A stretch of DNA of 63,870 nt, counting the filler, from Chrysochromulina tobinii (lineage: Eukaryota): assembly GCA_001275005.1 (NCBI GenBank). It is 8 parts of 8 records of this genome, joined end to end, with 100 filler letters (N's around TTAATTAATTAA, not from the genome) between each part and the next. Parts side by side here need not be neighbours in the genome. Positions count along the whole stretch, not along the records: positions 35,878 to 56,403 come from JWZX01000933.1; 7 more parts are not named here. One strand, given 5' to 3'. A program made the position numbers and the translations under genes. This document shows positions 1,747 through 61,631 of this stretch, one piece after another; the stretch's first letter is position 1; the number at the start of each line of letters is the position of its first letter. Under the pieces are notes generated by a model, which was not told the DNA's origin, made no database searches, and worked only from the letters and a program-made list of their open reading frames with translations.

Positions 1747-3608
1747 AGTCGGAGATGTCAGCTCCGGTCGGAGCCAAGTCCGTTCAACAGACGACCTCGG
1801 GGGAGATGGAGTCCAAAAGTCCCAAGCGATGGAACATGGCAGCGGCGGCGGCCGCGGCCGGCTCGACGATGTACATCAACGCGACGGGCGCGCTGGCAAT
1901 CGAGCCGACGGCCTACCAGAACGCGCTGAAGGAGCTTCCTGTCACGCTGCCGGTAGCTCTGATGGTCTCTGATTGCATGCTGATTGCATCCCTCATCAGT
2001 GCAGCTCGCGTCGCTCCTTCTCGCCGATCGGCAGGTACCCGCCTCCACCGCGGCCGCCATCTGCGCGTCACTCGCCCCCGTCCTTGATGCGCTCATGCGA
2101 GGTGTCGATGTCAAGTCAGTGGACTTCCAGGCTGCGAAGAATGCGTACAACAGCTGGCTGGAGAGCAGCTGGCTCGATCCGCGGGGGGACACCCCCGCCG
2201 GCGCCGAGGGCGCCGTGCCGAGCGCCATGCCTACGAGCGCCGTGGCGAGCGCCTCGACGCCAGCTGGCAGTGGGACTGGGGGCGGCGGTCTCCTCGGCCC
2301 ACCCTCTGGCCCTCCGCCTTGCTTGCCGCGCCCGCCGATACGAAAGCCCAAACCGATCAACGGCTGGTCGATTGAGCAGTACGGCCTCTCGGGCTTCTCT
2401 GGCTTGTATGCGCAGGGCCTGCATGTGCCACGCGTCGCGACGATTCGCCAGGTCATGCTCTGATGGTCTCTGATTGCATGCTGATTGCCTCCCTCATTAG
2501 GTCATGCTCTGGCTCTTGATGGTCTCTGATTGCATGCTGATTGCCTCCCTCATCAGGTCATGCTCTGGCTCCTGCAGTCGGCGCCCGGCATGCCCACCGA
2601 CGGCCCGCTCTCCTTTGCGGACTTGGGCGCGGGCACGTGCGCGGCCTGCGTGGGAGCGCGCTTCGCGCTGCGTGATCACGTGGGCGGAGAGCATGCATTC
2701 AAGGTGTGATCACTAATGACCACTGATGACCACTGATGACCACTGATGACCATTGATGACCAGCATGCATTCAAGGTGTGGCCGATTGACCTGGCCATCA
2801 AGCCTCCTCCTCCGCCCGTGCTTGATGACCACTGATGACCACTAATGACCACTGATGACCACTGATAACCACTGATGACCATTGATGACTTTGCATGCAG
2901 GTGTGGCCGATCGACGTGGCTTCCTCCTCCGCCCGCTTCCGTGAAGCTTTCACAGCGATGATCGAGGTGGGCACCGTCCATCGTCGAGACTCACCCATTA
3001 TGCTCAGTGGCAGTCATACAAAGGCCGCTCTGCTGCCCGGGCAGCACCCTTCACAGTATCTGACCGAGGAGGTGGAGGGCGTCGCCCCCCTTGTCACCTC
3101 GCTCCTTCGGCAGCTTTCCGAGCGCAACGAGCGGCAGCCCCACGTGATTATCGCCTCCTTCTCGCTCCACTACCTTCGTAAGGGCGAGCGGAAGGACTTC
3201 TACGAGACACTAGCCAAGGCCGTCACGCGCCCGCTGCTGTTGCTGATCCTAAAAGGAGTCGATGCGCCCGAGACCAAGGGTAAGTGCGAGCCGATGGTGC
3301 CAGCGCACATCCCGTCGATCATCCTCGGGCTTCATTATTACATTGGGCGCAGCCCGAAGCCACGTGTCGCAGAGGCGCAGCTCGCCCTCATCCTCCCAGC
3401 GGCGCAGGCGCACGCTGGGGCCCAGTCCTTCGCACCGCCGGCCGCGGGCCAGAAAGATGCCGTGCCCGCATACGAGCGCTCGGATCCCGACAGCTGGGTG
3501 CTCAGCACGTTTGCCGCGGCCCAGAGGCACAGCCGACGGCATGGGATCTTCACCGGGGTGACGGTGCTCGCCGAGGAGAAACTCGCCGCAAGGGACCTGG
3601 GGTCGTAG
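1087..3608 (+). CDS. Multi-exon protein of unknown function; the last exon may encode a methyltransferase-like fold
   Basis: Successive long + strand ORFs are separated by GT..AG repeat-filled introns at about 1953-1999, 2452-2556 and 2705-2900. The last exon contains IIASFSLHYL. Start and exon joins are approximate. Confidence 0.55.
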
Positions 3609-3719
3609 TCGAGAGAGAGAGAGAGAGATGCCAATCGGGATGACCAATTTTTAGCTGATGGGTTTCTTTGGGCCTTATACTCACACAGTATGACGTGACT
3701 GTGTACAGTACGCCGCGTA

Positions 3720-3782
3720 CGGTAAAAAGACACCGGGGGAGCCGGGACACGTCGTACCGGCTCCCCCGGTGTCTTTTTACCG
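3720..3782. repeat. Perfect 26-bp inverted repeat with an 11-nt loop
   Basis: cggtaaaaagacaccgggggagccgg (3720-3745) and its exact reverse complement (3757-3782). Confidence 0.95.
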
Positions 3783-5024: not shown

Positions 5025-7663
5025 CGGCGATTGGCGCCCCTCTCAGCAAGCCCGAGCAGCAACAGCGCTTACGAGCAGCAGCAGCGCCGAGCGGCAGCAG
5101 CAGCGCGAGCGGTGCCCCGAGCTGCGGCAAGCTTGCAGCGAACGGCACCGTGCCCGGAGGGCAGGGCGGGAGCCAGGTGGCTCCAAGTTCGCCGAACTCA
5201 CACGTCAAGGTCCAGAAAAAGTTTGGGATGAAGCTGTCGGTGGCCGCCGCCGCTCAGCAGCAGGTAGCCGGAGCGCAGCAACAGTCCTCTCGCCGTTCGA
5301 GTCGTTCCAGTGGCACGGCACGGAGCGGTGGCAAACGGAGCTCGAGGAAGCTCGACTGGAGTGCGCAGCAAGCGGCGCGGACCGTGGGCTGGGCCACCAT
5401 CGTCAAGGATGGGACCAAGCTTGTCACCTCGCGGATGCGCTTGAATGTCGAGATGCGCCAGCAGTACCAGCAGCAGTGGGCACGGCGCTTAGCCACCGTC
5501 AAGTCCGCTGAGGGCTTGAAGAAGACCATGGGGGACGGTACGGCCAGCTCGAAGAGCCGGAGAAATGAAGCGATTACCGATCATTCTGTAATGCGCTCCA
5601 TCACTCTCGAGCTCGAATCCGCCAAAGCTGTGGCGAACACGGCCGCCTTTGCGTATGGTGGCATCTACCCGGGGGTGTTGCATTCGCACGGCAAGCTGCC
5701 CGACTCGCATCGAGTCAGTTACTCGATTGGGGTGGCTGGAGTGTACCTGCTCCACGTGCGCTTGCGCCAGCAAGGCGCGGCGCTTCCTAGCTCGCCGTTC
5801 ATGCTGACTGTGCGGCCCGGAGAGGCGCACGCGCTGTCCACGAAGCTACCCGCAGTGCTGCACGGCGAGGTGGGCGGGCGGTGCTCGTACACGATCTCCA
5901 CCGCGGATCAGGGTGGCAACCCGTGCCTCGAGGGGGGGGCAAAGCTCTCGTGTACCTGCGAATCGGAGGATGATCTCTGGCTTCGCACGGGCGGCTCGAG
6001 TAGCGACAATGGCAAGCTCAGCGCCAAGTCCACCGACCACGGGAATGGCAAGTACACCATCGTGTGGCACGGCGAGAGGACCGGCACCTTTCTCGTCTCC
6101 GTCACGATCGGCGGGCTGCACGTGGTCGGATCCCCCGTGTTCCTCAAGCTGGCCTCCTCCATTCCTGACCTGACTAAGTGCCTCACGGATGTGCAGCGCT
6201 CGATTCGTGCGATCAAGGGTCAGCTCACGATGTTTCGCATTTGCTTCCGAGATGTCTACGGAAACTCGCCCAACTGCAGCAGCGCCTTTCGCAGCACCCT
6301 CAAAGCGGGGCTGGCGATCGCCAATCCGGGCGTTAAGGTGCCTACCGCGAGGACTGAGTACGACTTCGAGGGCTCGTGGGTGGATGAGGAGAGCGACGAC
6401 GGCACCCAGATCGCATGGTACCAGATTGCGTTCACGCCGATGACAGCGGGCTCCTACTCGATGCATGCATGGGTCGAAAGCAACGCCCCTGTAACCAATC
6501 AGGTGCCTGGGGTGGTGCGCAACTACATTGAAGGTTCGCCATATATCCTGGACGTCCACGCGGATGCTGCCAACGTCCAAAGCGGAGTCCGAGAAGTGAT
6601 CGACGTGTCGGGGATCATGCCAGGCGACTACAAGATCTCTCGCGACGTTTTTGAGGAGACGACGAAGAGATGGGGCGACTGCACCATCGATGCGTTTGCC
6701 AGCGTGGCAACGGCCACGCTGCCCCGATTCTGGACTGAAACGCCGAAGTTGGGCGCGGAGGGCACCGATGCGTTGAAGCAGGAGTGGCGGTACGGAGAGC
6801 GCGTGTGGGCGCATCCGCCTCTCCACCTGCTCGACGCTCTGGCGGCTTTCTTGGTACAACCGGACCGAGGCGCCGAGGTGATCGTGTGCGCACCATTCCG
6901 ACCCAACGCGGACTGGTTCTTCAAGATCAAGAAGCTCTGTGATGACTCGACCAAGTACATGGCAGGCCGGCTGAGTAAGGTAGCCAACGACGCTCCGTCG
7001 CGCGTGCACGAGTGGCCCATTATTCTCTTTCGAATTCCAGGCCGCAATCCTGGTGCAGGAGGGCCAACGCGCCCTCTAGCTCAGCCGCAGCCTCAGTCGC
7101 AGCCGCAAGTTCTGCAGCTTCCAATCCAACCTGGTGCAGGGAAGCCACTGCTTCCGCCTTCGTCTCTGCCGCAGCCTCTGCCGGAAATTGCGGCGGTGGC
7201 CAAGAGCCCTCGATTCGCACTTTCGATGGTCAACATTGCCAAGATCATCCGGGAGCATCCTCACCTCAGGCCGCAGATTAAGGCGATCGTGTCGCGCAAA
7301 GATCTTGACCAGAAGCAAAGCATCCTCGAGATTCAACAGCTGCTTGTCACTGCGTTCGGCCCAGCGGCTGCGGAGCGGACGGACGCTCAAGCCGCCGAGG
7401 CGCCCGTTGGCGAGACGGCCCTCGTCACGGGCGCGAGTGTGCTCGGCGCTCTTTCACGGGGCGCGCCGAGGGCACCTGCGGCGGCCGTCTTGCCGGTGCA
7501 AGACCCGTTGAGCGCGTACAACGTGGCGGACGCCATAGCGCTCGGACCTCCAGCAGAAATCAGCATGGTAGCAGAGAGCGGTCTGCGACGCTCACGAGTA
7601 CAAGTACAAGTGAGCCTCAAGGGCCGGGCAGCCACCTCGAGCTTCGCGAGCACATGTAAGTAA
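3881..7663 (+). CDS. Filamin/ABP280-repeat protein with an SH3b-like insert and a C-terminal DIRS/phage-type N6-adenine DNA methyltransferase-like domain
   Basis: Filamin motifs AFGPGL..A, F.I, G.Y.I.V and GSPF.V occur about four times. SH3b-like VRAEPDLDSEEIGEL..GWA. MTase-like WG..TIDAFAS..LPRF..GAEGTDALKQEW..WAHPP at about 6620-6950. Start codon uncertain (3881 or 3905). Confidence 0.8.
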
Positions 7664-18313: not shown

Positions 18314-20360
18314 TCAGCCCCCCGCATGATCCGTCACCATCTTGAGCAGCTCAGGCTGCCGATCCTTCACGGCCATCGCCACCTTGCGCGCATCGTCCAC
18401 GCGCCCGATCCGGAGCCAGATGGGCACCGCCTCCACGGGCGTCAGCTTCGGCGCATACTTGGCCGCTTCGTCACTCGCGCCTTGCTCGAGGCATGCATCA
18501 GCAAAGGGCTGGAACCCAATGGGCGAGCGGCGTGCGGAGCCGAGATCGGCCCACAACGTGGGCCAATCGCGCTTGTGGCTCAATCCCTTGAGCTTGAGAC
18601 GCCACCAGCGCTTCTCAGGCACCTGATGAGGTGGGCAATCAGACACGCATGAAGACCATCAGAGGCCATCAGAGGCCATCAGAGGCCATCAACGGCCATC
18701 AGAGGCCATCAGAGGCCATAAACGGACCTTGAGGTCATCAACGGCCATCAACGGCCATCAACGGCCATCAGAGGCCATCAAGTGACGTACCTTGAGATCA
18801 TTCTTCAGCTTCTCGGCCGCGCCAGGCTGCCCAAAGGCCCACGCCCGATACAGCGTCTCGTTGAGCGGTTGGTCGAGGAAGCGAAAGCCCTGATGAGGCA
18901 TGCAATCCGTGGCCCTCAGAGGGCAATCAGAGGTCATCAGCGGCCCACTCAGAGGCGCACTCAGAGGCGATCACGCGCACCGACTAAGAATCAAAGGCCG
19001 AGGGCGGAGCGCCGACGGGGGGCTTGTGCCCCAGCGTGTCACGCTCGAGCTGGCGCTGTACGTCGAGCAGTTTGAGCTGCTCCTCCGTCTGGCGCGCGAG
19101 AGCGGCGCATTGGGGCGAGGACGCGGCCGAGTGCTCATAGAACTGGAGCGCGATGGCAAGGCCTCGCATGCGTTGTGCCCATGTGGGAGCCTTGTACGCC
19201 TCGCGGATAGCCAGGGCGGCGGCGTCGACGGGGCGGTTGGTATGGTAGAAGAGCGCCTTGAGTGTCTCAGGCTCTCGTGCGCGGCAGTAGATGGCGAACA
19301 GGTGCTGCGCGTTTGGCTGTGGGCGCAGCGCAGGCAATAGGAGGGTCATCAGTAGCGATCAGGGGGTCATCAAGGGCGAACCAGGTGGTCATCAAGGAGC
19401 CATCGACCTGTGGAAGCAGCAGGAGGCCATCAGAGGCCATCAGAGGCCATCAGAGGCCGTCAGAAGCCATCAGAGGCCATCGTACCTGTGGAAGCAGCAG
19501 CTCGTAGAATTCGGCCTCGGCAAGCGTCGTCTTGGCATGCAAGAGGACCAGATGGACTAACTCCACGTCTGCGGAATGCGCCGCCTTCTCGAGCGCGAGA
19601 GGCAGCTCTCCCATGCGCAGGAGGAGGGGCACCTGCTGGGCCGGCCGAGGCTCCTGCTCGAGCACACATCAAGGGAGGTTAAGGGAGGTCAAGGGAGGTC
19701 AAGGGAGGTCATCAGAGGTCATCAGAGGTCATCAGAGGTCATATGAGGTCATCAGAGGTCGTCAGAGGCTCCTGCTCGAGCACACATGATAGAAAGGCGC
19801 TTACGTCAGTGAAACTATCACTCGCAGTCACTGAGGTCATCAATGAGGTCATCAGGGGCCATCAGCGCGCCTGCTCGAGCAGCTTATGAAGGAGGCAATC
19901 AGAGGTCATCCGAGGTCATCCGAGGCCATCAGCGCACCTGCTCGAGCAGCTTATGAAGGAGGCAATCAGAGGCCATCCGAGGTCATCCGAGGCCATTAGC
20001 GCACCTGCTCGAGCAGCATCGTGGCAAGGCGCTGCCGACCGACCCGATGCGCCTCCGCCGCAATCTCCGCCACGCAAGGCTTCGCAGCCTCCGAGGATCC
20101 CATTGTGAGCCGGGTGCGCAGCTTCTCGAGCAGCGCCTCGGCCTCTCCGCCTCAGACAGGCCCCGTCCTTCGTCCGAGAAGCCGCGTGTGGACACACACG
20201 CGGTGGAGGTGGTGCACAAAGGCGTCGACGCGCGTGGCAATCAGCCTTAAATCGAGACGCTCCTCCCCAAGCCGGCCCTCCTACCCGTCGATCTGGCTGA
20301 GCAACGTCTCACGCACCTGCAGCCGCCTGCACCGCGGATCGTCATTGAGAATGCCGATAA
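18314..20360 (-). CDS. VPS16: Vacuolar protein sorting 16 (HOPS/CORVET), C-terminal part, multi-exon, 5'-incomplete
   Basis: Exon peptides LLEQEPRPAQQVPLLLRMGELPLALEKA..DVELVHLVLLH and VPEKRWWRLKLKGL..DW..RSPIGFQPFADAC match Vps16_C. Introns contain (GATGGCCTCT)n. Confidence 0.85.
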
Positions 20361-26789: not shown

Positions 26790-27536
26790 ATCGCGCGTTT
26801 GCCGCGGATCGCGCGGCGTGTCCCTAACCACGTGGCGCGAGCGTCAGCCGACCGTCGCTCGAGCGTTTTCCATGCGTTCGCCGCGGGCTGCGCGGCAATC
26901 CCCATCCGTGGCGCGAGCGTCAGCCGACCGTCGCTCGAGCGTTTTCCATGCGTTCGCCGCGGGCTGCGCGGCAATCCCAATCCGTGGCGCGAGCGTCAGC
27001 CGACCGTCGCTCGAGCGTTTTCCATGCGTTCGCCGCGGGCTGCGCGGCAATCCCCATCCGTGGCGCGAGCGTCAGCCGACCATCGCTCGAGCGTTTTCCA
27101 TGCGTTTGCCGCGGGCCGCGCGGCATCCCTAACCCCCCCCATCCGTGGCGCGAGCGTCAGCCGACCGTCGCTCGAGCGTTTGCCATGCGTTTGCCGCGGG
27201 CCGCGCGGCAATCCCCATCCGTGGCGCGAGCGTCAGCCGACCGTTGCTCGAGCGTTTGCCATGTGCGCGTTTGCCGCGGGCCGCGCGGCATCCCTAACCC
27301 CCCCCATCCGTGGCGCGAGCGTCAGCCGACCGTCGCTCGAGCGTTTTCCATGCGTTTGCCGCGGGCCGCGCGGCATCCCTAACCCCCCCCATCCGTGGCG
27401 CGAGCGTCAGCCGACCGTCGCTCGAGCGTTTGCCATGCGTTTGCCGCGGGCCGCGCGGCAATCCCCATCCGTGGCGCGAGCGTCAGCCGACCGTTGCTCG
27501 AGCGTTTGCCATGTGCGTTTGCCGCGGGCCGCGCGC
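26790..27536. repeat. GC-rich minisatellite of 9 units of 76-89 bp
   Basis: The unit core cgtggcgcgagcgtcagccgacc starts at 26831, 26907, 26983, 27059, 27144, 27220, 27309, 27394 and 27470. Confidence 0.95.
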
Positions 27537-28159: not shown

Positions 28160-31100
28160 GAGAGCTGCCGAGCATCAGGCCCTCGACTATCGACTGAGCG
28201 CCCTCCGCACAGACGTGATTGCTTTGCATGCGCAGTGCGCGGATGGGAAGCCTGCCGGCGCTGATAGCGCGGCCGAGGGCGTTCGCGCCATCGTCACCGA
28301 TGGCATTCTTCTTGAGATGGATGAGGGGTTGAGCAAGAGGAGCTCGGAAAGGAGCATGAGCTCGGCATCTCCGAAGAACTCGTGGCACATCTCGAGCATC
28401 GAGCGCACCTGTGTGGAGGCGCGGGGCGCCGTGGTGAGCACTCGCATGCAGGGCTCGTGGCGCATCTCGAGCAATCAAGAGCGTACCTCATGAACCTTAA
28501 TGGAGTAGTGCTCGGTGGTCGCGACCGTCTTGCGGCTGCCCGATTTGGATTCCTTTGACGAGCTCGTCATCGACGCCCATCCAACCATCATTGGCAAAGA
28601 GTGGCCACCAGAGGCAAACAAGAAGGCAAACAAGAGAGAGCAATCAGAGAGCAATCAGAGAGCAATCAGAGAGCAATCAGAGAGCAACCAGAGAGCAACC
28701 AGAGAGCATCGGTGGCCATCGGTGACACTCACTTTGACGAGCTTGCCAATGCCTTCATCGTAAATATGGTTGTTCGAGACGGAGAGCGAGACCCACTTGG
28801 CCGCCTCGCCTCACAACTGCTTCTCAAGCCGGTCGACGTCGTCAGGTCTAGCTCACGCAATCCGTGCCACTCCTCGCCCCAGCTGCCTGGCGGCTTCCAC
28901 ACCTTGACCATCTTGTCGATGCCGCTCGAGAAGAGCGTTCCTTCGGGCGTGAGGCACAGGTTGGCCACCGTCTCGCGGTGGCCGCCCGATCTCCTCGTCG
29001 TACTGGAGCATCCAGATGGCCCCTTTATGACCGACCAGAGTCCCCCTGCACTGATGTTGGTCCTCGCCCGGACCCACCTGATCAGGGATGCAATCATCGG
29101 TCAGTCGTGCCCTGCCATGGCCGTCTACGGCCATGGGCAGCCCCAACCGTCCACAGCTTGATCTCGCCCGTGCGGCAATCAACAGCAATCAACGACCATC
29201 AACGGCAATCAACGGCACCTTCCAAGGCTTGATCTCGCCCTTGCGGTCGCCCTCTAGAGCATTTCGCCGAGCAGCTTGAGCGAGAGTACGCCCATCTCGT
29301 GCCCCTTGAGCACCGCCTCACAGCGAAGGTCGGAGCGGCGCCACTTGCGGATCGTCTGATCCTGCGAGCCCGAGTACATGTACTTCTCATCGTGTAGCAG
29401 CGTCTCACCCCAATTCGTGTGCGCGTTGAGCGTCGCACCGCACCGCAGCCGTTGCGGCATGTGCTCCACCGTGCATGCATCGGTGGCCGCCGCAAGCAGC
29501 GCCTCGATTGCGTCACTCCCCATTTCATTCCAGCGCATGTCGAGCATGTCAAGCGGCGCCGCTGATGGCCACTGATTACAGCTCGCAATCGCCATGGCGA
29601 GCTTGTGAGCGTCTTTGTTGCCCCAGCAGTTGCCAAAGATGCGCAGGTCCTTGAGCATGCATGCGGGCTTCGTGAGCGCCTCACACAGCGCCTCGACCGC
29701 GACCGAGGTGTACTCACCCCACCCCTTCCAATTCACGCCGCATCTGAGAGGCAGCCCAGAGAGCATCAGTGGTGGCGATCGGGGGCACTCAGGCGCACTC
29801 AGCCCCTGCACTTGTTTGGGCTTGGGGGGCGCACAGTTGGTTTTGGCCGAGCTTGAGGGAGCGCAGTGGGCTGCCTGCGGTCGTAAGCCACTTGCACACG
29901 ACCGCCACAGCAACCATCGAGTACTTGCACATCGCCTTCGGCGGTCAGCCCGCAGATCTGCGGCAAACAGCGACCATCAACAGCCATCAACAACCATCAA
30001 TAGCACTCAGCGGCCCTCAGCGGCACTCAGTGGCCTTAAGTGGGCCTCAGCGGCACTCAGCGCACCTGGTTGTCGCTCAGGTCCAGTAGCGAGGTCGGGC
30101 TGTGCGCCACCATGAGCCCTTCGAGGAGCGCGACAGCGCCGTCGCGTCCAATCTTATTGCCGCGCAGATTGAGCCGTTGGATACACACCCGCCCCGAGGA
30201 GATTGATCTCGCAAGGAGGCTGGCACCTTTCTCGGTGATGGCATTGTACCCGATGGACATGCTCGGGATCATGACGGTCATCTGCTTGAGGGGAGAGACG
30301 GCGGGGCTGGCTACGGGGCTGGGCGTGTACGAGACGTAGCCACTCGAAGCTTTACAGCCAGCGCCGCCATCGCCGCCAGCGCCGCCAGCGCCGCCAGCGA
30401 CGCCAACGCAGCTTCCCTTCGGCACGCCGACCCTGCCGCCGAGTGCGCTGCCCACCACGACCACCTCGCTGCCAGTTTCGTCATCGAGCGCATCAGGCCT
30501 CTGGGCATTCGAGACGACGACCTCGAGGATCAGCTGCAGGTCGAAGTCAGTGAGCTTCTGGCCGTCGATCTCGATGTCACCTCCCGCCATGAGCTGCTAG
30601 ATCGGGAGCGGGTGAGAGGCGAGCTGTACGAATTGGATCGAGTCCGAGGCGACCAGCGCACGCGCGAGCTCGGAGATGCCGCTCTCTTCGAGCGCGTTGC
30701 CCGAGATGTCGAACCGCTCGAGCGCCATGACGGGCACCTGACGAGGAAAGGAATCAGACGTTTCTAAAGGAAGGGGTGATACGCTGCAATCAAGTGACAA
30801 TCAAGTGACAATCAAGGCCAATCAAGGCCAATCAAGGCCAATCAAGGCCAATCAAGGCCAATCAAGGTCCAGAGCCCATCAGAGCCCATCCATGACAATG
30901 AAGGGCCCTTAATCAAGGGCCCATGATTGTGCCAAGAGCTCACCGAGAAGATTTTGGTGAGCTCTACCAGCCCCTCATCCGCAATCTTATTGCCCGACAG
31001 ATCGAGCTCTTTCAAGCGGATGGGCGAGCTCTGGATCTCGACCACCAGCGGCAGCAGGGGCGCGACTTGAGCCCGCAGCTCGCGAGCTGCACAGAGACGA

Positions 31101-35877: not shown

Positions 35878-38800
35878 GGCAGCAGCGGCGCCGGCGCCGG
35901 CGCCAGCGCCAGCGCCGCTGCCGCACCGGCCGCTGCACCGCCCGCTGGAGCCGAGCCTCTCCCACCGACGCCCCGGCAGCTCGCCAAGCTGAGTGAAGAT
36001 CAGTTGGTGCACCTGTGGGGTCTGGTGACGGCTGAGGTGCCCCCCGATGAGCGCCACGTGTACCGCAACACGGCCATCGAGGCACTGTGCGAACTTCTCG
36101 AGGAGCCGACTTCGAAGCTCGCGTATCTCGACCTGAGTGCCACAGCGCTCTGCGGCGTCGATGCGACGGGGAAACCACTGCTCGGGTGCGAGTATACGTC
36201 CGAAGCAGTGGAGCGGCTCTGCTTCGCGTTGCGCTCCGAGCACTGTCGATTGACCACTCTTAAGCTGACCAAGTGCCAGATGCGCACGGCGGAGGCGGCG
36301 GCGCTCGCGCTGGCCGTCAAAGCTTGCTCCGCCCACGGGCCAATGGTGCAGACGCTCGTGCTGGAGGGTTCGTCACTACCCGTGCCGCAGCTGCTCGGCC
36401 TGCGTGAGCTCTCGCAGGGGCTGCACAAGCGCTTCTCGTCCGAGTGCTCCAAATTGCATGGGTCGGAGGTGACGCTCATCGCACAGCTCCTCTCCGAGAA
36501 CACGAGCCTAGAGCTGCTCGATCTCAACTCGAGTGGCCTCAGCGGCGGGCTCTCCGAGATTGCGAGCGCCATCGCCGCTCGCGCGATGCCGCTCACCGCA
36601 CTACACCTCGGCGAGAATGGGCTTTCGGCCGCGCACACGATCGAGCTCGTGCACGCGCTGCGCACAGGCGCGCCACAATTGACGGACCTCGACTTATCGG
36701 GCAACCCGCTCTGCGGTGTCGAAGAGGGCGGCAAGGATGAGTACTCGACCGAAGCGATCGAGACGCTCTGCAGCTGGATCGCCGATGGCGCGGCGCTGCT
36801 CTCGCTCTCGCTCGTCGACGTGGCCCTCTGCGGACTCGCGCGCGATGGCAACGGCTCTTACCAGTCGCGGGGCATTGCGGTGCTCAACGAGACGCTCTCC
36901 TCCGGCCGCGCCGCCCAGAAGCATATCTCGCTCAAGTCGCTCAATATCTCCGGCTGCAAGATTCGCGAAGACGACGCGCACCATCTGGGCAAGGGGCTCT
37001 CGCGCAACCGGACGCTCGAGAAACTCGTGCTCGACAAGACGCCTCTCATGGTGCAGCAGCTCCTGCGTGGCGAGCGGCTCAGCTTGCATTCAGTCGACTT
37101 CAGCGAGGTGGACGCGACACTGATGGCGCAGCTGCTGCAGCAAGATCTGGCGCTCACATGCATCGACCTGGGCGGCGCCAAGCCGTTACCCAAGGAGATC
37201 AAGGTGCTCTCCGACGCGTTTGCACGGCTGCATGGGCGCGCCTCGGTCCGCGAGCTCTCGGTGAGCGGCCGTTGTCTCGGGCTCGAGGCCCTGCACGTGG
37301 CTGCATGCAAGTGCTCACCACGGCGCCCCCACCCTTTCCCCACAGGTGAGCGGCCGTTGTCTCGGGCTCGAGGGTTCGGCCTCGCTCCTCGACGCGCTCA
37401 AGGATTGCCCACTCGAGGTGCTCGACTTGACCGGCAACGAGATCTGCGGCATCAAGGCCACTGGCACCGACCCGTTCAACCCGTTCGTGCTCAAGATGGT
37501 GTGCGCACTCATCATCAAGGAGGGGTGCGCGCTGCGCCGGTTACGCCTCAAGGGCAACCATATGATCGGCAACGACGTGTACACCAGCGAGGCGGTGTTC
37601 CTTTTCTCGGAGGCGCTGCGATCGCCGCGCTGTCGGCTCGAGGAGCTCCAGCTCGGTCTTGTCAACAAGAGCAGCGGCCTGCGCGAGGAGGACGGCATGG
37701 TGCTCGGCACGGCGGTGCAGGCATGCGCGAGCCTCATCAAGCTCTCGGTCACGCGCGCCGAGCTGCCGATGACCGAGCTGCTACACGGCTCAATCTCACT
37801 CGATCTCGAGGGCAAGGGACTCGGGCGCACCGAGATGGGCATCGCCGCACAGATCTTGCGCTCGAACGGCACGCTGCGCACGCTCAAGCTCACCGACAAC
37901 TGCATGGGACCCCACGGCCTACTCGCTCTCGCCGACGCGGTGCGCCACGCCCGCCCCCCACTCGAAGAAGTCTTCATGGGCAATCTGGGCATCTCCTCTT
38001 GCGAGGAGATCTATGTCTTCTTGCGTGCGCTGCGCGAGGGCGGCGCGCCGCTGCGCGTTCTCGACATCCACGGCAACCCGCTGTGCGTCGCCGAGGGCGG
38101 CGCCACCGCCAGCGCGCCGCCGCCGGGCAGCAGCGGCACCCAGCACGGTGGCGCGCCCGACGAGCAGCGCTGCTTGCGAGCCCTTGCCGAGGTATGCGAC
38201 TGGATCACTTCTCCGGGCAATCAGCTGAGCGTGCTCAACCTGCGCGAGGTGATGAAGGAGGAGCTGCCCGCGGAGATCCACCAAGCCGCGCTCACCATGC
38301 TCTGCGCCGCGGTCGGGCATGAGCACTGCGTGCTGCGTGAGCTCAATGTGCACGGCTTTGGCTTCAAGCCCGCATCGGTCACGCTGCTTGCCGAGGCGCT
38401 CCTCCGATGCCCTACGCCGCTCGAGACCCTGGTGCTCGCACGCTGGGCGGTGCCTGTTCGCCGACTCGGGGTCGAGGCTGGACGTCTCACGTTTGGGGGC
38501 GCCAACGGCTGCCAGGAGGATGTGGTGCTTGTCTCACACCTGCTCGGCTCCGACATGCGCCGCGCCTCGCTCCTTTCCCACTCGTCGAGCCCGAACGCGC
38601 CCTCGACGAGCCCTCTTGGCGCCATCCTGCCACTCGTCGGCGCCCCCGCCGCGCCGTCCTTCACAGCGATGGTGCCCAACACAGCGCGCAGGCCCAGAGC
38701 CAATCCGGAGTTGCCCTTCTCGGTGCCCAGCGTCGACGCGGCTGGCAGGGCCGATCGTGCCGCGTTCAAAGGCAGTGGTGGTGACGGCGGCGGTGGCGGC

Positions 38801-41800
38801 GGCGGCGGCAGCAGCAGCGACGATGCGCTCGAGGGCGGCGGTGGCGCGGGCGGCGCCGCGAGCGACGGCATTGTGCGCTGCCTCGACCTCTCTGAGATCG
38901 GAGCCAATGTTGGGAGCGCGGGGCTGTCCGCGATAGCGAGTGTCATCCGCAAGGGGCAGCTGCCGCACCTGTGCAGCGTGATCCTCAAGGACACCTCGTT
39001 GAAGAAGGCGCAGCTCGAGCAGCTGCTGCGGGCGCTGCTCGACGGGGGCTGCGCTGTGGAGGACCTCGAGCTCTGTGGAACTGAGCTCTGCCTCTCGGCG
39101 CCGGGGCGTTTCTGCCTGGATGCTCTCCGGATCGTCTGTGCACTCATCACGCGCGCAGGGAGCACGCTGCGTCGGCTCGGGCTGCGCGGCACGCACCTGT
39201 GCGGCCTGCCACCCGGGAGCGATGTGGGCGACAAGTACAATCTGGAGGGCATCGCCCTCTTGTGTGCGGCGCTGTGCTCGGAACACTGCATGCTCGAGGA
39301 GCTCGACGTCTCCGACAATGGTCTCCGGGCGGAGCGCGAGCCCCAACCGCCCTCGCGCCTGCCCGCTCGCCTGTACGGGCTCACGCGCCAGGACGGGCCG
39401 CAGCTAAGCGCTCTTGTACCTGCGGTGCGCGCGCGAGTGCTGCGCGAGCTGCCGTACCCAGCCATTTTCGCCCGTGCGAGCGCGCGAGGCTTTGAACTGC
39501 CTCCGCTCGAGACGGTGGCGAACCTCGAGGCAAGTGCCTTCCTCGAGCTGTGGGGACAGGCCAACGAGGCCGAGCGACTCGCCGGGAGCCCAGCCAGCGC
39601 CGCGCCCGCCCGCGCGGGGCCGCCAACCTGCGCCGTCCCGGGAGCACCTGGCGCAGGAAACGATGAGGTGGGCCACCTGCAGAGTCACAGCAGCGGCAGC
39701 AGCAGGAGCAGCAGCGTGCTGGCAGAAGGGATCGTGGTGCCGTTGGCCACGCTGGGCTCGGCCGTGGCCGCCGCCGCCTCTGCCGCCGCCGCCGCCGCCG
39801 CAGCCGCGATGAGCCGCGAGCATGCGCCGAGCACGCCATCGCCCCCGATCCCGTCGATGCCCTCGGCGCCCTCGCCCGTTCTGATGAACTTCACCGAGGG
39901 CAGCGGTGTGAATGTGAATGTGAACTTTGCCGAGGGCAGCGGCAGCGTGGGCACGGCGAGCGCACGCGTACGTGTGCCATCAACGGAAATGGGCGCGCAC
40001 ACGGCGCACTATCCCGAGTTCTCAGCCGCCCACACGTCACTCATGGCCAAGCACCTGACACGCGACGCGTATTTATCCATGTGCGAGGTGCGCAGCGGGA
40101 TGGCTGCCTTCACACTCGATCAATCGATCTCGCCCGGCCGGCTGCGCCCGCACGCGGTCATTGGCGCCGTTGCCGCCGACGTCGACTGCTACGACCGTTT
40201 CGTCGCACTTTTCGACAAGATCATCGAGGAGTGGCATTTGCTTCCGGGCTCTCGGCCGGGCAAGCTCGCGCACAACTCGGAGATCGACGCGAACAAACTC
40301 GAGCTCAACGCCGAGCTCAATGCCGAGCTCAACGCCTTCTTGAATGCCGAGCTCAACGCTGCGGGCAGTGCCGCGGGCAGAAGCAGCAGCAGCAGCGTCG
40401 ACGACGGGGAAGGTAGCGAAGGCGGCGGATCGGCGAAGGTTCCAATTGTGACCGCAATTAAGGCTCCAATTGTGACCGTGAGCAGCGGCAGCGCCGAGGC
40501 GAGTGGCGGCGGCGCCGGTCGGGCGGGGTCCCTCCTCGAGGGGGTGCTTGTGCGCGTGGCCGTGAGCCGCAACCTCGCCGAGCATGCATTCACACCGGCC
40601 ATGTCGAGTGAAGACTTTGCGGAGGTCGAGAGGGTGCTCCTTATCGCACTGCGTGCTCTGCCTCAGTGTGAAGGCGGCGCGGGCACGTACACGCCCTTCA
40701 GCAGCCTCGACGAGGCCGCGATGGCGCAGCTGCATGCTGAGGGTCTGCTCGTCGAGCCGGTGGACCCGATGGTCGCCGCGAGCCGAGACGCGGAGAGGCA
40801 TCGCGGCCTATTCCGTACTCCACGCGGCGAACTCGCCGCGTGGATCAACGGCCCCGATCACCTTCAGCTCCTAGCCGTGCAACGAGTGGGTGTGGGCGTG
40901 GACGGCGCAGGTGCCGCCGCCGCCACCGCAGCCGCCGCCTCCCAGTCCCTCGTGCGGACCGTGTTTGAGCTGGTGCACAGCGCACTCGCCTCTGTGGAGA
41001 AGACGATTCGCGAGTCGAACAAGACGTTCGCGCTGCATCGGCGGCTCGGGTACGTGGGCTCGTGCCCGTCCGTGCTCGGTACAGCGCAGCAGGTGGCCAT
41101 CCGACTGCCGTTGCCGCGGCTCGCACAGCTCCCGCCAGGCTCCCTCGAGGAGGTCGCGAGCGAGTTCTCATTGCGCGCGTCGCGCGTCGTGCCGGGCACA
41201 TTCCCGCCCAACGTGGGCCTGCCGCGGGGCGACGCCGACGGCGGCGAGGGGGGCGCCGGGCGCGAGAACTCGGTCGCGAAGCTTCGGGGAAGGTTCCGAG
41301 CACCATCGAGACGGATGCAGTTCGATGGTCGCTCCGATCTCCTCCAATCTGAGCCGATCTCCTCCAATCTGCGGATGCAGCTCGATGGTCGCTCCGGCCG
41401 GGAAGAGCCGTTGGCGCCGCTCTCCGACACGTCGGCGACCAGCACCGCCACCAGCGCTGCTGCCGCCGCCAGCGCTACTGTCGCCGCCAGCGCCGCTGTC
41501 GCCACCAGCGCCGCCGTCGCCGCCAGCGCCGCTCCCACCGCCGCGCCTGCAGCCGGCCCCGAGTTGTGGGAGTTGAGCAACCGCCCATGCATCGGGCGGA
41601 CGGAGGTGCAGCTCGCTCAGCTGGTCTTCGACAGCGCCGCGCTGCTGATGGCCGTGGATCGCCGAATCGGCGCGGGGGAGACGCTGCACGCGGCGATGAC
41701 GCCGCCGCCGCCACCCGAATCCGCCTCGATGCAGCTCGCGCAAGCAGTGCACCGCGGGCGGCCGCACGCGAGGCTGCGCCTGCTCACGCTCTCATCGACG

Positions 41801-44800
41801 CCGCTGCCCGTGCTCGACTGGGCGGGGCGCGCGACGCGACTCTCGCTTGCGGGGCTGCGCGTGTACGACCGTGACGCGGTGCTGCTCTCTGAGCTGCTCG
41901 CACTCAACACGGTGCTCGGCTCGCTGATGACCTCTGATTGCCTCCCTCATCAGGTGCTCGGCTCGCTGATGACCTCTGATCGCCTCCCTCATCAGGTGCT
42001 CGGCTCGCTCGACCTCTCGCAGTGTCGCATGACCGAGGCGGGCACGCTCGCAATCGCTCGCGCGCTGAGCACCTCGATGCCACGTGGCCTGACCGAGTTA
42101 CGCCTGCCGGACAACCGGCTACGCGTCTCGGGCGCGCACGCACTGCTCGACGCGCTCGACGCGGCGCGTTGCCGCCTCGAGTGCCTCGACCTCTCCGCCA
42201 ACGAGCTGTGCGGCGGCACGGTAGCCGAGGATCATTCGTTTGGGCTGCTCAAGGGGTCGGCCGCTCGCCTCTCCGAGCACGGGCAGCTCTGCCGGCTCGA
42301 GTCTGATGGACTCTGCTCCGCTGGGCCGCGCATGGAGCCCTTCTCGGGATGCTACCGCATTGAGTTCGAAGTGCTCCAGGCGACCGACGGCGATGGCGCG
42401 TACGTTGGCGTCATCAAGCCTGACGCGAACAAGTCGTCGTACCCGGGCTCGGATGACAAGGGCGTCGGCTGGCGTGCCAAAGGTGACGTGCGCCACCTAC
42501 ACAACGCCGTAGACATGGGGGGCGCCATCGCGGGCTGGGGGCAAGGTGACAGGGTGGGGCTCATGCTTGACACACACACGTGCGAGCTCACGTTCCTCAA
42601 GAATGGCAAAGCCTTCGAGCAGCGGTACACGGTCTCAATGGACGGTGGCATGTACTTTGCCGTCGGGCGCTACTACGGCTCCTACGTCGTGCGCTGCCTC
42701 TACGTGCACCAGCAGGGCGGCAACGAGGACATGGACTACTCGGCCCTCGAGCGGCTGTGTACGTTCGTGCACGCGCCGGGCAATCGGATGCGCGAGCTGC
42801 GCGTGGCGAGCAACCAGCTCATCGGCGTCTCCAAGTTCCATGGCGGTAGGCGCAACGAGCGAGGGCTGCATCGGCTCATTGCCGCTTTTGGGAGCGAGGC
42901 ATGCGCGCTCACGCATCTCGATGTGAGCGGCAACGGCTTCTCAGCCGAGGACGCGGCCGCTATGCTCGCGGTCGCCATGCGACCGTCCGCGTCCATCCTG
43001 CTGCTCAAGGTGCACCTGTGGCTTGTACCTGTCAAGCAGCTCGCCGCCGATACGGCGCTCGACCTGCGCGGTCAGGGGATGTCGGACGAGGACGCGGCGC
43101 TCCTCGCGCGGCTGCTCGAGAGCCGCTCGCAGCTGACGCGGCTCGACCTGCACGACAACCGTCTGGGCACCAGCGGAGTGGCCGCCCTCGCCAGGGCGAT
43201 CGCCGCCTCTGGAACGCCCTTGGAGTCCCTCGTCCTCTCCGCGAATCGGCTGGGCGCGAGCGCCGCCGCGGCCCTCGTCGACGGACTCGCGGCCATCCAG
43301 CCGCCCACGCTGACGGCGCTCGACTTGTCGGACAACCCACTGACCGAGGGCGCCGCCGCATACGACACACGCGCGATCGGCGCCCTCGAAGCGCTGCTGG
43401 TCGCGCCGGGATGTGTGCTCACGACCCTGGGCCTTTCTGCCACGCAGCTGTGCGGGCGCGATGGCGACACGAGCTACGTGGGCGAGGGCATCGCGCTGCT
43501 CGCGTCCGCGCTGCGTCGCTCGCGTGCGCCGCTCGCCTCGCTCCGTCTCGCAGGCAACCTGATGCGCGACGCCGAGGCCACGCTGCTCTGCACAGCTCTC
43601 TCGGAGCGAGAGGGCGCGGGCTGCGCGCGCCTGTCGCTCGACCTCTCGACCAACTCGCTCTCGTCCGCGCGACTCGCCGAGGTTGGCGGGCTGTGCACTC
43701 TCGTGGCCGCCTTCCAGAAGCCGCTGTGTGAACGCGTCTTCGTGGGCGTGGACAAGTGCGTGTACAGCGCCGTCGCGAGCGAGCATGCCATCTACATGGC
43801 GCACGGCTCGGGACCCATCATTAAGGTGTCGCTCACTGAATGGAAGGAGCTCGGCCGCTTCGAAGGGCATGCCGACGACACCAACTGCCTCGCGCTGCAC
43901 CGTGACCACCTTCTGTCTGGCTCGGATGACTACACGGTCAAGCTATGGCGCACGACCACTTCCGCTGCGGGCGAGGGCTGCTGTGTCGTCACGCTGACCG
44001 GCCACGAGGCACGCGTCTGGTGCGTGCTCGCCACGGACGAGTTCATCTACTCGTGCTCGGCTGACAAGACCATCCTCGTCTGGTCGATGGCCGATGCGCA
44101 GCGCGGCATCGCGACCCTCAAGGGACGGCTCACCGCGCACACGGACGTGGTGTACGCGGTGCGCCTCGCCTTTGGCTCTCTCTTCTCGTCGAGCGCCGAC
44201 AAGACCATCAAGCGATACGCGCTCGACACGCATCGGGTCACGATCTCATGGGAGGCGCACGCGCACTCGATTACATGCCTCGCGGCGGCTGAGCGGCTGC
44301 AGTTGCTCTGCTCGGGCGCCGAGGACGGGCGCATCTGCCTCTGGCATGTAGGCGCGACGACGGCCACTTGCGCCGGCACGCTGAGCGTACGCCCCCACGG
44401 ATCCCGCGCCGCCTCGTCGAACTTGGCTATCTACGCTCTCGCAGTGAGCCCGACGGGCACCGTGCTCTTCTCGGGCGGTGCAGACTACCGCGTGCACATG
44501 TTTGACTTGACGGAGCGCACACTGCTCCACACGCTGACCGGCCACGCTAGTACCGTGCGAGCGCTCTGCTTCACCGCCGCGGGCGATAAGCTGTGCAGCT
44601 CCGGCGGCGATTTCAACCTCCTCGTGTGGGCCCTACACGAAGATCAGAGAGCCGAGGAGGAGCTGCGCGTCAGGGAGGAGGCTGCCACCGCCGTCGCCGT
44701 GGCCGCTGCCGGCGGAGGCGTCGGAGGCGCAGGCCTCCACATATCTCGAGCGGGAGGCGCAGGCGGAGCGGGAGCGGATGGAGTCAGCGCGTCGAGCAAC

Positions 44801-44857
44801 AGTCGAGCAGCCGAGGAGGAGGAGGAGGAGGAGGAGGAGGAGGAGAAGCCGAAATAG
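35878..44857 (+). CDS. Giant LRR - phosphagen-kinase-like - SPRY - LRR - WD40 protein (5'-incomplete)
   Basis: ORF 36004-37260 splices in phase (intron 37261-37345) to ORF 37346-44857. Many RI-type LRRs. ATP:guanido phosphotransferase-like region at about 40000-41670, SPRY at about 42340-42700, WD40 repeats at about 43760-44640. Confidence 0.85.
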
Positions 44858-58348: not shown

Positions 58349-58762
58349 AGCCCGCCGCAGGCGCGAAAATTTTGGCGATATTGACTGTTAATCACTACTT
58401 TTAGGCCCTGAAATTGATGCCACTCACACACTATTGACTGCGACGTACATGTATGTACCGACTACTACGATGACACACTAGCCCACAAGAACAAAAGCAA
58501 CTGTCTCGCTCCCTTATCCGCCCGCTCTCTCGACTGCATGGCCGGGATCCATAGCGAACTCGAGCCTGAAGTCAAGATATCTTTGACCGAAAGCTGGATT
58601 GTAGCTTCACACCACCCTGCGGAGCACACGAGAGCCAGCAACGAGCACAAGCTGAGTCATCATCTGCGTGGAGTCAGTCGAGGCTCACAAGGCGGGCATT
58701 ACACTGTTTGCAGCTGATTGCTGGTCGACTGCTGCTCATCACTGTGCTTGGCCCACTGCTTC
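58349..58762. repeat. Copy A of a ~430-bp dispersed repeat
   Basis: Aligns collinearly with 61174-61631, from agcccgccgcaggcgcgaaaattttggcgata to gcttggcccactgctt. Confidence 0.9.
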
Positions 58763-59505
58763 CAGCGGCTGGTGGCCGCCGCCTTTGCTGCCTCTTCCTC
58801 TAGCGATTCTTTCGCTTTTGCTGCAGCCTTTGCTGCGGCTGCTGCGGCGCGACCACCCTTCTCCTGCCAGTAGCCGGCAGGCAGGCCAGCCTTGCTGCGG
58901 TCACCGCCATGGCCACCCTTGCGGATGTATGTCCTCACCATTGAGACGGAGAGAGGGGCGGCAGCCAAGGTGCTGGGTCGCACCGGAAAAGCGAAGGTGT
59001 GCGCGAGGGGTTTCGTGAACAAAGTTGGAAAGGCCGTTTGTAGGCTTCGTTATGATAATTCTGAGCGGATTATTGCGGATCTGGGGCCTACGTTCCGAGA
59101 TCTGTCGATTGGTACCCTTGCATTATGTGCATTATTTGACTGCCTTTTAGACTGCCTTGCAGCTTGCTGCTGCCTAGTTCGCCTAATCAAGTTGCCGCCC
59201 ACGAGGGAACGCGCGCCCCCCCGCCGTCGGTCCGCGACTAGTGGTGCCGACCCATTGAATGCGACCCGACGGGCGAAAGTGCCGATGCGAGCGGGCGCGG
59301 CGCGCGTTCGCGCGCCGCCGGGCGGCCGCTCCCGGTAGATTGTCCCCGGGTAAAACTTTGGTCACTGCAGTACCAAACAGATCTTTCAACCTCTCTATCA
59401 TTCTGCTCTCCGTGAGCAAGGTGCGGCCGCAGGCCACTGCTCGAGGGTCGCTCACGCTCGCAGCACCCTGAAGCTTCGCGAACGCGCTCGTACGCACGTC
59501 TGCCT

Positions 59506-60819: not shown

Positions 60820-61173
60820 CGAGGAGGAAGACTGCAGTCATAATTGCACCTCGAGGTGACTGATGAGGTTTCGAAGCTCGTCTGTGCGGAATTTTCAATT
60901 GGAGCAACGTTCACGATCACGTTAGATTGCCATCTCGGCAAGACGCACGACCACCGGTCCCGTGGAGACACATCGTGGAGGGCGCAGAGTGCGGTGCACC
61001 CACCCACACAAACAAACAAGGCGCCACACACACACACATGGACACCGGATCGGACAAACACACGAAGAAGAGGCGGGGGTCCCGGGGTATCGACGGCCTC
61101 TTGGGAAGTGACGGGGGTGCTCTAAAGAGGGGGGGTAATCAAGTTGCCCCGCGCGCGTAGCGCGCGGGTTTTC

Positions 61174-61631
61174 AGCCCGCCGCAGGCGCGAAAATTTTGG
61201 CGATATTGACTGTAAATCACTACATGTAGGCGATATTGATGCCACTCACACCCCTGACTCACACACTATTGACTGCGACGTACATGTATGTACCGACTAC
61301 TACGATGACACGCTAGCCACAAATGACAAAAGCAACTGTCTAGCTCACTCATCCGCCCGCTCTCTCGACTGCATGGCCGGGATCCATAACGAGCCCCTGT
61401 AACGAGCTTATAACGAGCTTGAGCCTGAAGTCAAGATATAATCCTTGACTGAAAGCTGGATTGTAGCCTCACACCACCCTGCAGAGCACACGAGAGTCAG
61501 CAACGAGCACAAGCTGAGTCGTCATCTGCGTGTGGAGTCAGTCGAGGCTCACAAGGCGGGCATTACACTGTTTGCAGCTGATTGCTGGTCGACTGCTCGT
61601 GCTCATCACTGTGCTTGGCCCACTGCTTTCC
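61174..61631. repeat. Copy B of the ~430-bp dispersed repeat
   Basis: Direct-orientation match to 58349-58762 with small indels. Confidence 0.9.

Follow-up and report, generated by a model that had tools for sequence, protein, structure and literature searches.

Introner-like introns with exon-start duplications of variable length in Chrysochromulina tobinii, and existing introns as their likely templates

The 84-nt sequence at 41912-41995 of the DNA analysed here (the window: 63,870 nt of assembly GCA_001275005.1 of Chrysochromulina tobinii, eight pieces joined by N spacers, with a GC content of ~62%) is a spliced stack of two units and one case of a process that is widespread in this prymnesiophyte alga. 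The feature is real and introner-like with a duplication of variable length, and it does not belong with MITEs, retroposons copied from one master or transposition by clean reverse splicing. A variable 8-55-nt duplication is combined with intron donors that can be traced, and the sequences suggest that new introns likely arise by patching of a broken gene with an existing intron as the template. The source of new spliceosomal intron sequence is a long-standing question and is unknown for most gains that do not involve transposons; here, donor, recipient, direction and junction homology can be read directly, and the organism is in culture and has both DNA and RNA runs.

The stack and its host gene have the following features in the window:
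37261..37345, plus strand: family-B intron of the host gene, in which a 28-nt copy of its own exon is followed by 62 nt that exactly match the 3' portion of an L045 intron
37346..44854, plus strand: host coding region with LRR, phosphagen kinase, SPRY and WD40 domains
41912..41953, plus strand: unit 1, a 14-nt exon-start copy, which gives the GT donor, and a 28-nt family-A body ending in an acceptor
41954..41995, plus strand: unit 2, the same as unit 1 except for one base, with the AG that is the acceptor seen in RNA contigs
41996..42009, plus strand: exonic original of the duplicated 14 nt

As the preliminary description had stated, the stack consists of two 42-nt units, each of which has 14 nt copied from the start of the following exon; the units differ from each other by a single T/C difference, and RNA contigs join across them. 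Contigs from two of three RNA runs (X12 and X15) start at 41995, and their 15 loose letters are those of 41896-41910, i.e. the spliced junction; an intronless allele is a less likely source of this 15-nt joint. In the third RNA run (X14), a contig matches 41928-42511 without a difference and holds the junction from the acceptor to the second unit. The stretch is present in DNA and RNA runs of mixed cultures (17 of the 21 rows listed), where the RNA and DNA evidence consists of assembled contigs and RNA libraries can hold DNA. The spliced stack itself is real, and the count of two units is provisional and based on contigs.

Removal of 41912-41995 restores an LRR, and the unspliced 84 nt are likewise in frame and stop-free. 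The ORFs P0006 and P0008 of relatives encode this LRR and read through the 41912 site without an insert; the end of P0006 seems to extend into an intron, suggesting that this ORF was called on genomic DNA. Because RNA contigs join across the stack and relatives are without it, 41912-41995 is likely a recent intron gain. Moreover, since the two duplications are equal in length and the units differ by one base, the second unit would probably have been formed by duplication of the first rather than by an independent insertion, although the body of the 41912 units is the commonest of all, its exact 30-mer recurring in 13 other loci.

Several observations were made in and around this gene. The host coding region is an unusual fusion that joins LRR, phosphagen kinase, SPRY and WD40 domains within a single frame. 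Position 41922, inside the first exon copy, has C>T in DNA run X8 (depth 30.5) and in RNA run X15, possibly reflecting a second allele. At 41313-41396, a 24-nt duplication surrounds a 10-nt-periodic filler (60 nt, in frame) and is kept in RNA contigs of three runs; it is an insertion built like these introns that has turned coding. Among relatives, the ORF P0003 contains a Pro-Asn repeat that would correspond to intronic repeats of the telomere type, which suggests that other haptophytes fill introns with a different repeat.

The 20-nt family-A acceptor end has 10 matches in the window at ≤3 mismatches and none in each of 100 shuffles; these matches include 1999 as well as 18623, 18890 and 29078, at which related minus-strand acceptor ends had been noted before. 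Besides the host gene of the 41912 stack, the window contains the following introns and intron ends:
1953..2034, plus strand: intron seen in RNA (one contig joint, 1 of 4 runs) that keeps the frame
2452..2556, plus strand: two-unit intron (49 + 56 nt) with exon copies of 10-11 and 15 nt
2704..2900, plus strand: intron that contains two distinct decamer arrays and sequence copied from the exons on both sides
18623..18790, minus strand: VPS16 intron with a family-A acceptor
18890..18998, minus strand: VPS16 intron with a probable GC donor and a family-A-like acceptor
19317..19485, minus strand: VPS16 intron in which the end of the upstream exon is copied
19654..20004, minus strand: VPS16 intron with several nested insertions and copies of the upstream exon end and of the donor
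29078..29097, minus strand: diverged family-A acceptor end, with 3 mismatches

One RNA contig, from 1 of 4 runs and with a depth of 3, omits the entire intron at 2452-2556, and contigs from 2 of the 4 RNA runs omit that at 2704-2900. The two units at 2452 carry exon copies of different lengths, as had been reported. The suggestion that this difference favours independent events is not supported, as the units share a rare body and a 7-nt indel explains the difference equally well. A 17-mer of this body is present in three copies within this one gene and in one copy in all other loci; because both 2452 units share the body, which is also found at 1953, they are local copies. The unit described at 1953-1999 exists, but it is not a free-standing intron: splicing to 1999 would break the frame, and the only RNA joint seen is 1953-2034. 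The first 47 nt of this intron are likely a copy of the 2452 body that is one base out of register, so that the downstream AG is used.

The VPS16 gene (18316-20150) contains four array-containing introns in ~300 codons. All four are absent from the five relatives examined, in which the sequence is contiguous and one of which is on a 56.7-kb contig; the relatives with empty sites, here and at 41912, are 49-85% identical and are not sister strains. The VPS16 introns and the 41912 stack are therefore likely gains, and loss in all relatives is a possible but less simple explanation.

For counts beyond the window, a metagenome pattern scan for the 20-nt acceptor end yielded at least 136 stretches, giving 131 loci. 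The statistics are based on loci that add up to ~0.57 Mb, selected with a single motif among the matches listed and pooled from several records, probably of several strains; 22 of the 131 loci were left out of the counts as duplicates or subsets, and L036 was additionally left out of the counts for family B, private 12-mers and unit lengths. Sufficient flanking sequence is present at 124 distinct sites, of which 49 have more than one unit and 106 are followed by GT or GC. A copy of the site's own downstream exon start, 8-55 nt long, was detected upstream of the acceptor at 46 of these 124 sites at a score of at least 10 (56 at a score of 8), compared with 0.7% when another site was used and 2.4% when the position was shifted; at 78 sites, no copy was found at the score-10 threshold. 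Family B, which has a different 3' end and was found in the flanks, i.e. was not chosen by the search pattern, has 95 hits in the fetched loci; here, the exon-start copy is present at 29 of 69 sites as opposed to 0.3% in the control, with duplications of 10-40 nt. Thus, the earlier claim that a dispersed family makes introns by insertion with a variable exon-start duplication is borne out, and the comparison of intron starts with exon starts against controls gave a large excess on these ~0.57 Mb of loci. In some family-B copies, a donor-side body of ~55 nt is conserved, and the duplicated sequence is the end of the upstream exon.

Of 268 direct-repeat events recorded near decamer arrays, 190 were retained after filtering, with a median duplication of 21-27 nt; 53 start at the donor, 27 end at the acceptor, 33 span both and 77 are out of register. 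Isolated events are in exact splice register in 58 of 80 cases as opposed to 20% under the null, and in 30 of 47 cases when events with the searched motif are set aside. The donor-carrying and array-only classes mirror the acceptor-carrying class. Before the first copy, the bases are exon-like, with G at -1 in 35 of 41 cases and near-random sequence beyond -3, and no decayed acceptor is present. Junction microhomology of at least 2 nt was found on the 3' side in 88 of 177 events (null 14%), a count that is inflated for acceptor-carrying events, and on the 5' side in 53 of 177 (null 13%). The intronic copy did not drift faster towards the donor consensus, with 11 of 205 differences at +2 to +6 and 27 of 592 beyond. 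Presence/absence polymorphism was not found among the few overlapping loci, which differed only by repeat-length changes and one exonic tandem gain; between L015 and L018, one record has gained 180 nt as tandem copies of a 60-nt unit, without decamer filler.

The arrays are also strongly oriented. For 164 arrays, a crude self-trained codon model called both flanks sense in 37 cases, both antisense in none and both non-coding in 6, as opposed to 10%, 8% and 11%, respectively, for background flanks, and the two members of an adjacent pair lie on opposite strands in only 4 of 273 cases. Selection accounts for part of this sense and genic bias, and transcription coupling may account for the rest.

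Altogether, these introns resemble introners in that many dispersed introns of related sequence are present at non-homologous sites, are spliced out so that the reading frame is regained, with RNA contig joints at 41912-41995, 2452-2556 and 2704-2900, and occupy sites that are empty in relatives. They differ from introners in that they are not similar from end to end: most pairs share just the 3' 20-60 nt, and the 5' parts are copied from the local exon. With a 5' half that is unique to each intron, this class of gains would likely escape screens for whole-intron similarity.

As each intron holds a copy of its birth site, the direction of copying can be read, and we found four directional donor-recipient cases, within and between unrelated genes, as well as one inverted local copy. 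In L026, in a gene that we take from its motifs to encode an AAA-ATPase, the whole intron 6513-6613 reappears at 3645-3745 and still has the exon copy of the first site. The L105 intron, in a gene that is presumably C2-like, reappears whole in an unrelated gene of L048, with 12 exon-start bases shared. The second unit of L129 has a body derived from L069 and continues into the L069 exon copy via a 7-nt homology, and the first L129 unit is different. The 62 bases of 37261-37345 that are identical to L045 include a piece of the L045 intron's own exon copy, and 7 nt of exon start are shared with this donor; judging by the frame, 37261-37345 would be spliced. Finally, L103 301-365 is an inverted copy of the 3' end of the neighbouring intron inside an open frame, for which we infer the direction of copying from position alone; the reverse complement of the decamer itself contains acceptor-like ends. 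The flanks of donor-recipient pairs are not homologous (local scores 8-10), and the trans pairs are likely from one strain.

The sequences also suggest that local templates are favoured. Same-strand neighbours within 3 kb share at least 15 body bases in 5 of 128 pairs, compared with 44 of 19,861 other pairs, and array similarity exceeds 0.5 in 10 of 100 pairs at 200-500 nt, 1 of 64 beyond 4 kb and 1.5% of pairs between loci. Among 297 acceptors, 7 pairs share at least 8 private 12-mers; 5 of these 7 have at least 4 exon-start bases in common (background 9.1% of 43,873 pairs) and 3 have at least 6 (background 1.2%; p ~1e-4). The private-12-mer threshold was picked after the data had been seen, and at the loosest threshold 15 of 55 pairs share at least 4 bases. 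The truncated copies at 37345 and in L103 each have 7 bases in common with the exon of the donor and, by our reading, just 2-3 with the donor intron starts. With the donor exon thus included in the homology, DNA or unspliced pre-mRNA is a more likely template than a lariat or circle, and the template seems to extend past the AG. Whole-intron transfers do not separate the template types, because in these the intron start equals the exon start. As donor, recipient, direction and junction are visible, the question of a DNA versus an RNA template is testable by counting in one assembly.

Acceptors are repeated at 65 sites, 18 of which have two or more units carrying an exon copy. By our reading, ~14 of these 18 stacks share a body and ~4 (L053, L069, L077 and L129) do not, so that copying of a unit and independent re-insertion both occur. 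Thus, repeated insertion and unit duplication, which had been offered as alternatives, are both at work; independent insertion applies to some stacks, such as L129, but probably to neither 41912 nor 2452. In a recursive or nested (stwintron-like) intron, each unit is excised in its own step. Units of at most 60 nt make up 1 of 40 single introns as opposed to 10 of 19 stacked ones (p ~1e-5); short units are therefore almost only found in stacks, which argues against the nested or recursive splicing that had been envisaged. A lone 42-nt unit is likely too short to be spliced, and the pair is likely removed as one intron; a single stop-free, in-frame unit could have been tolerated prior to doubling. 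Except in the 30-nt core at 41924-41953, no stable RNA structure of the units beyond that of shuffles was found.

We consider it probable, on the pattern of copies and junctions, that the 84-nt stack arose by microhomology-primed copying of the 3' end of an existing intron, followed by doubling in place. A staggered break or, alternatively, a double template switch at the target would be the trigger. A free 3' end at the target would pair with a few bases at the acceptor-exon junction of the donor, copying would run back through the donor acceptor and the decamer array, and a second microhomology would rejoin the ends, the overhang thereby becoming duplicated. The template would be genomic DNA or unspliced pre-mRNA, including the downstream exon of the donor in the informative truncated cases. 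In exons, the survivors would be insertions that are in splice register and reach ~60 nt; each surviving intron would be a new template, and the 41912 pair would be excised as one intron via the distal AG. Whether intron gain as a whole is self-feeding and free of a transposase, with repair using unspliced pre-mRNA or transcribed DNA of introns as patch templates for gain on a mass scale, we put forward more tentatively, as a possibility slightly weaker than its opposite. If true, every new intron would be a donor with a barcode of its birth exon, and a genealogy of thousands of introns could be read from one genome.

A purely DNA-based process does not obviously predict the near-constant sense and genic placement of the arrays, which fits with excised intron RNA (lariat, linear or circle) as the template, inserted by first-step reverse splicing into R-loop DNA or by target-primed reverse transcription; models of this kind are described in the available parts of PMC4540971 and PMC10996645. 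Such a template would give an AG-fixed 3' end, a variable duplication and truncation at the 5' end, and identical stacks would result if an intron circle were copied by the rolling-circle route; the fixed 3' end, the variable 5' end, bodies from 20 nt up, local enrichment and whole-intron transfers are in line with it. However, the 7 donor exon-start bases at 37345 and in L103 are held by neither a lariat nor a circle of the donors, the donor-carrying and array-only classes mirror the class that carries an acceptor and, as a weak argument, a search for reverse transcriptase motifs in the window and loci (~0.6 Mb) found none, and we regard excised RNA as an unlikely template. The acceptor-carrying class shares variable duplication, a fixed 3' end and 5' truncation with microhomology with retroposons (non-LTR/Penelope-type); a master-copy retroposon was rejected, as the bodies trace to different donor introns and are not truncations of one master. 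Similarly, reverse-splicing transposition, which is clean and leaves no duplication, was rejected on the long duplications and the donor-exon homology in the two truncated copies.

Local tandem duplication or slippage at old introns, with the shared ends reflecting an extended splice-signal consensus, would explain that most stacks consist of near-identical units, that array lengths differ between overlapping records and that some duplications span an existing donor. It accounts for the doubling at 41912 but not for the first unit; moreover, exon and not a decayed acceptor precedes the first copy, the introns are absent from relatives and foreign exon pieces move between unrelated genes, all of which make it improbable; as a complete explanation, it is contradicted by the donor-recipient pairs unless these are assembly chimeras. 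A MITE-type introner of the classical kind, with terminal inverted repeats of 7 bp and a DNA transposase, is suggested by the 30-nt core at 41924-41953, the one place where 7-bp inverted ends were seen, which has a weak fold (z -1.97; 10 of 200 shuffles as good), and by the recurrence of exactly this 30-mer. Elsewhere, 5' ends and bodies vary, duplications of 8-55 nt do not have one value, even among recent, identical copies, and the same footprint is found in family B, which is without these ends; thus, we consider a MITE very improbable. The ranges of duplication in families A and B also led us to reject a fixed-duplication transposon. Replitrons (PMC10288648, as described in its available part) were rejected since the element showed no direct repeat at its termini, and telomere-repeat insertion (PMC13518057, likewise) since the repeat unit is not TTAGGG. 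Finally, DNA contigs break inside the 41912 stack and the motif is very deep (10871 as opposed to ~43), as would be seen if stacks were assembly artefacts of a repeated k-mer. The exact match of the RNA-run contig to 41928-42511, the base that distinguishes the two units, a six-unit stack that is identical over 1101 nt in two assemblies and other stacks that match at 100% render an artefact hardly credible.

The comparison with known systems covers the available parts of the cited papers. In Symbiodinium and Polarella glacialis, introner classes 4, 5, 6, 8 and 10 obtain the 5' site from a duplication and carry the 3' site (bioRxiv 10.1101/2020.10.14.339549). The introns described here are like these classes in geometry, GT/GC donors derived from the duplication, GH-like exon starts and several insertion registers; unlike these classes, which have a fixed 3-8-nt duplication and a defined element, they have duplications of 8-55 nt and variable bodies, and private sequence of neighbours is copied. 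Haptophyte introners (Gozashti et al. 2022, 10.1101/2022.06.06.494994; 2025, PMC12130899) are from the same lineage. They include an unclassified family of 5 copies, Emiliania huxleyi fam24, which has terminal direct repeats of 10 bp, a co-opted 5' site and a carried 3' site (PMC12130899), and an example from Chrysochromulina sp. with a 4-bp duplication that carries the 5' site (10.1101/2022.06.06.494994, PMC12130899); C. tobinii is listed with 0 families in the 2025 survey (PMC12130899). In the available text of these two papers, we found neither a variable long duplication nor donor tracing described.

In Daphnia pulex, intron gain via repair of staggered double-strand breaks leaves 4-12 bp repeats, and the sources of most inserts are stated to be unknown (PMC4202315). 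Both systems show flanking repeats of the adjacent exon at new introns, recurrent events at young introns and rescue by cryptic sites; the introns described here differ from those in D. pulex in their longer repeats and in that the source is other introns. Intron transfer between paralogs has been described (PMC3443670), and R-loop reverse splicing predicts clean insertion (PMC4540971). As in intron transposition or transfer, existing intron sequence is found at a new site in sense orientation; unlike there, the genes are unrelated and truncation, microhomology and long duplication are observed. In mammalian cells, repair of breaks with 3' overhangs by NHEJ or polymerase-theta end joining gives tandem duplications (PMC8355091). 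The duplicated overhang and, for the theta route, the junction microhomology are alike; a link to intron creation was not found in the part of PMC8355091 available. Repeats of 4-30 bp near intron borders are reported in general (PMC11782384); the available parts of PMC4580454 and PMC12480563 yielded nothing on intron repeats, and that of PMC11282704 no class with a variable long duplication. A literature search limited to open papers found no published report of this combination of features.

Searches of a viral collection with the motif and with the host protein gave no match to either, and the ESM Atlas gave only matches below 0.8. An Rfam search of the window had 0 matches, so that interpreting the decamer as a hammerhead or snoRNA is unsupported. 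Elsewhere in the window, a family-B intron end is present at 28412-28480 (minus strand) and at 37303, and a minisatellite at 26795-27535 consists of 76-85-nt units with telomere-like runs. The coproporphyrinogen oxidase encoded on one piece has its best match among entries with a species name in Haptolina ericina (89%), which places the source among the prymnesiophyte haptophytes. A dispersed non-coding repeat, also found in L071, flanks the coproporphyrinogen oxidase gene at 58349-58807 and 61082-61628.
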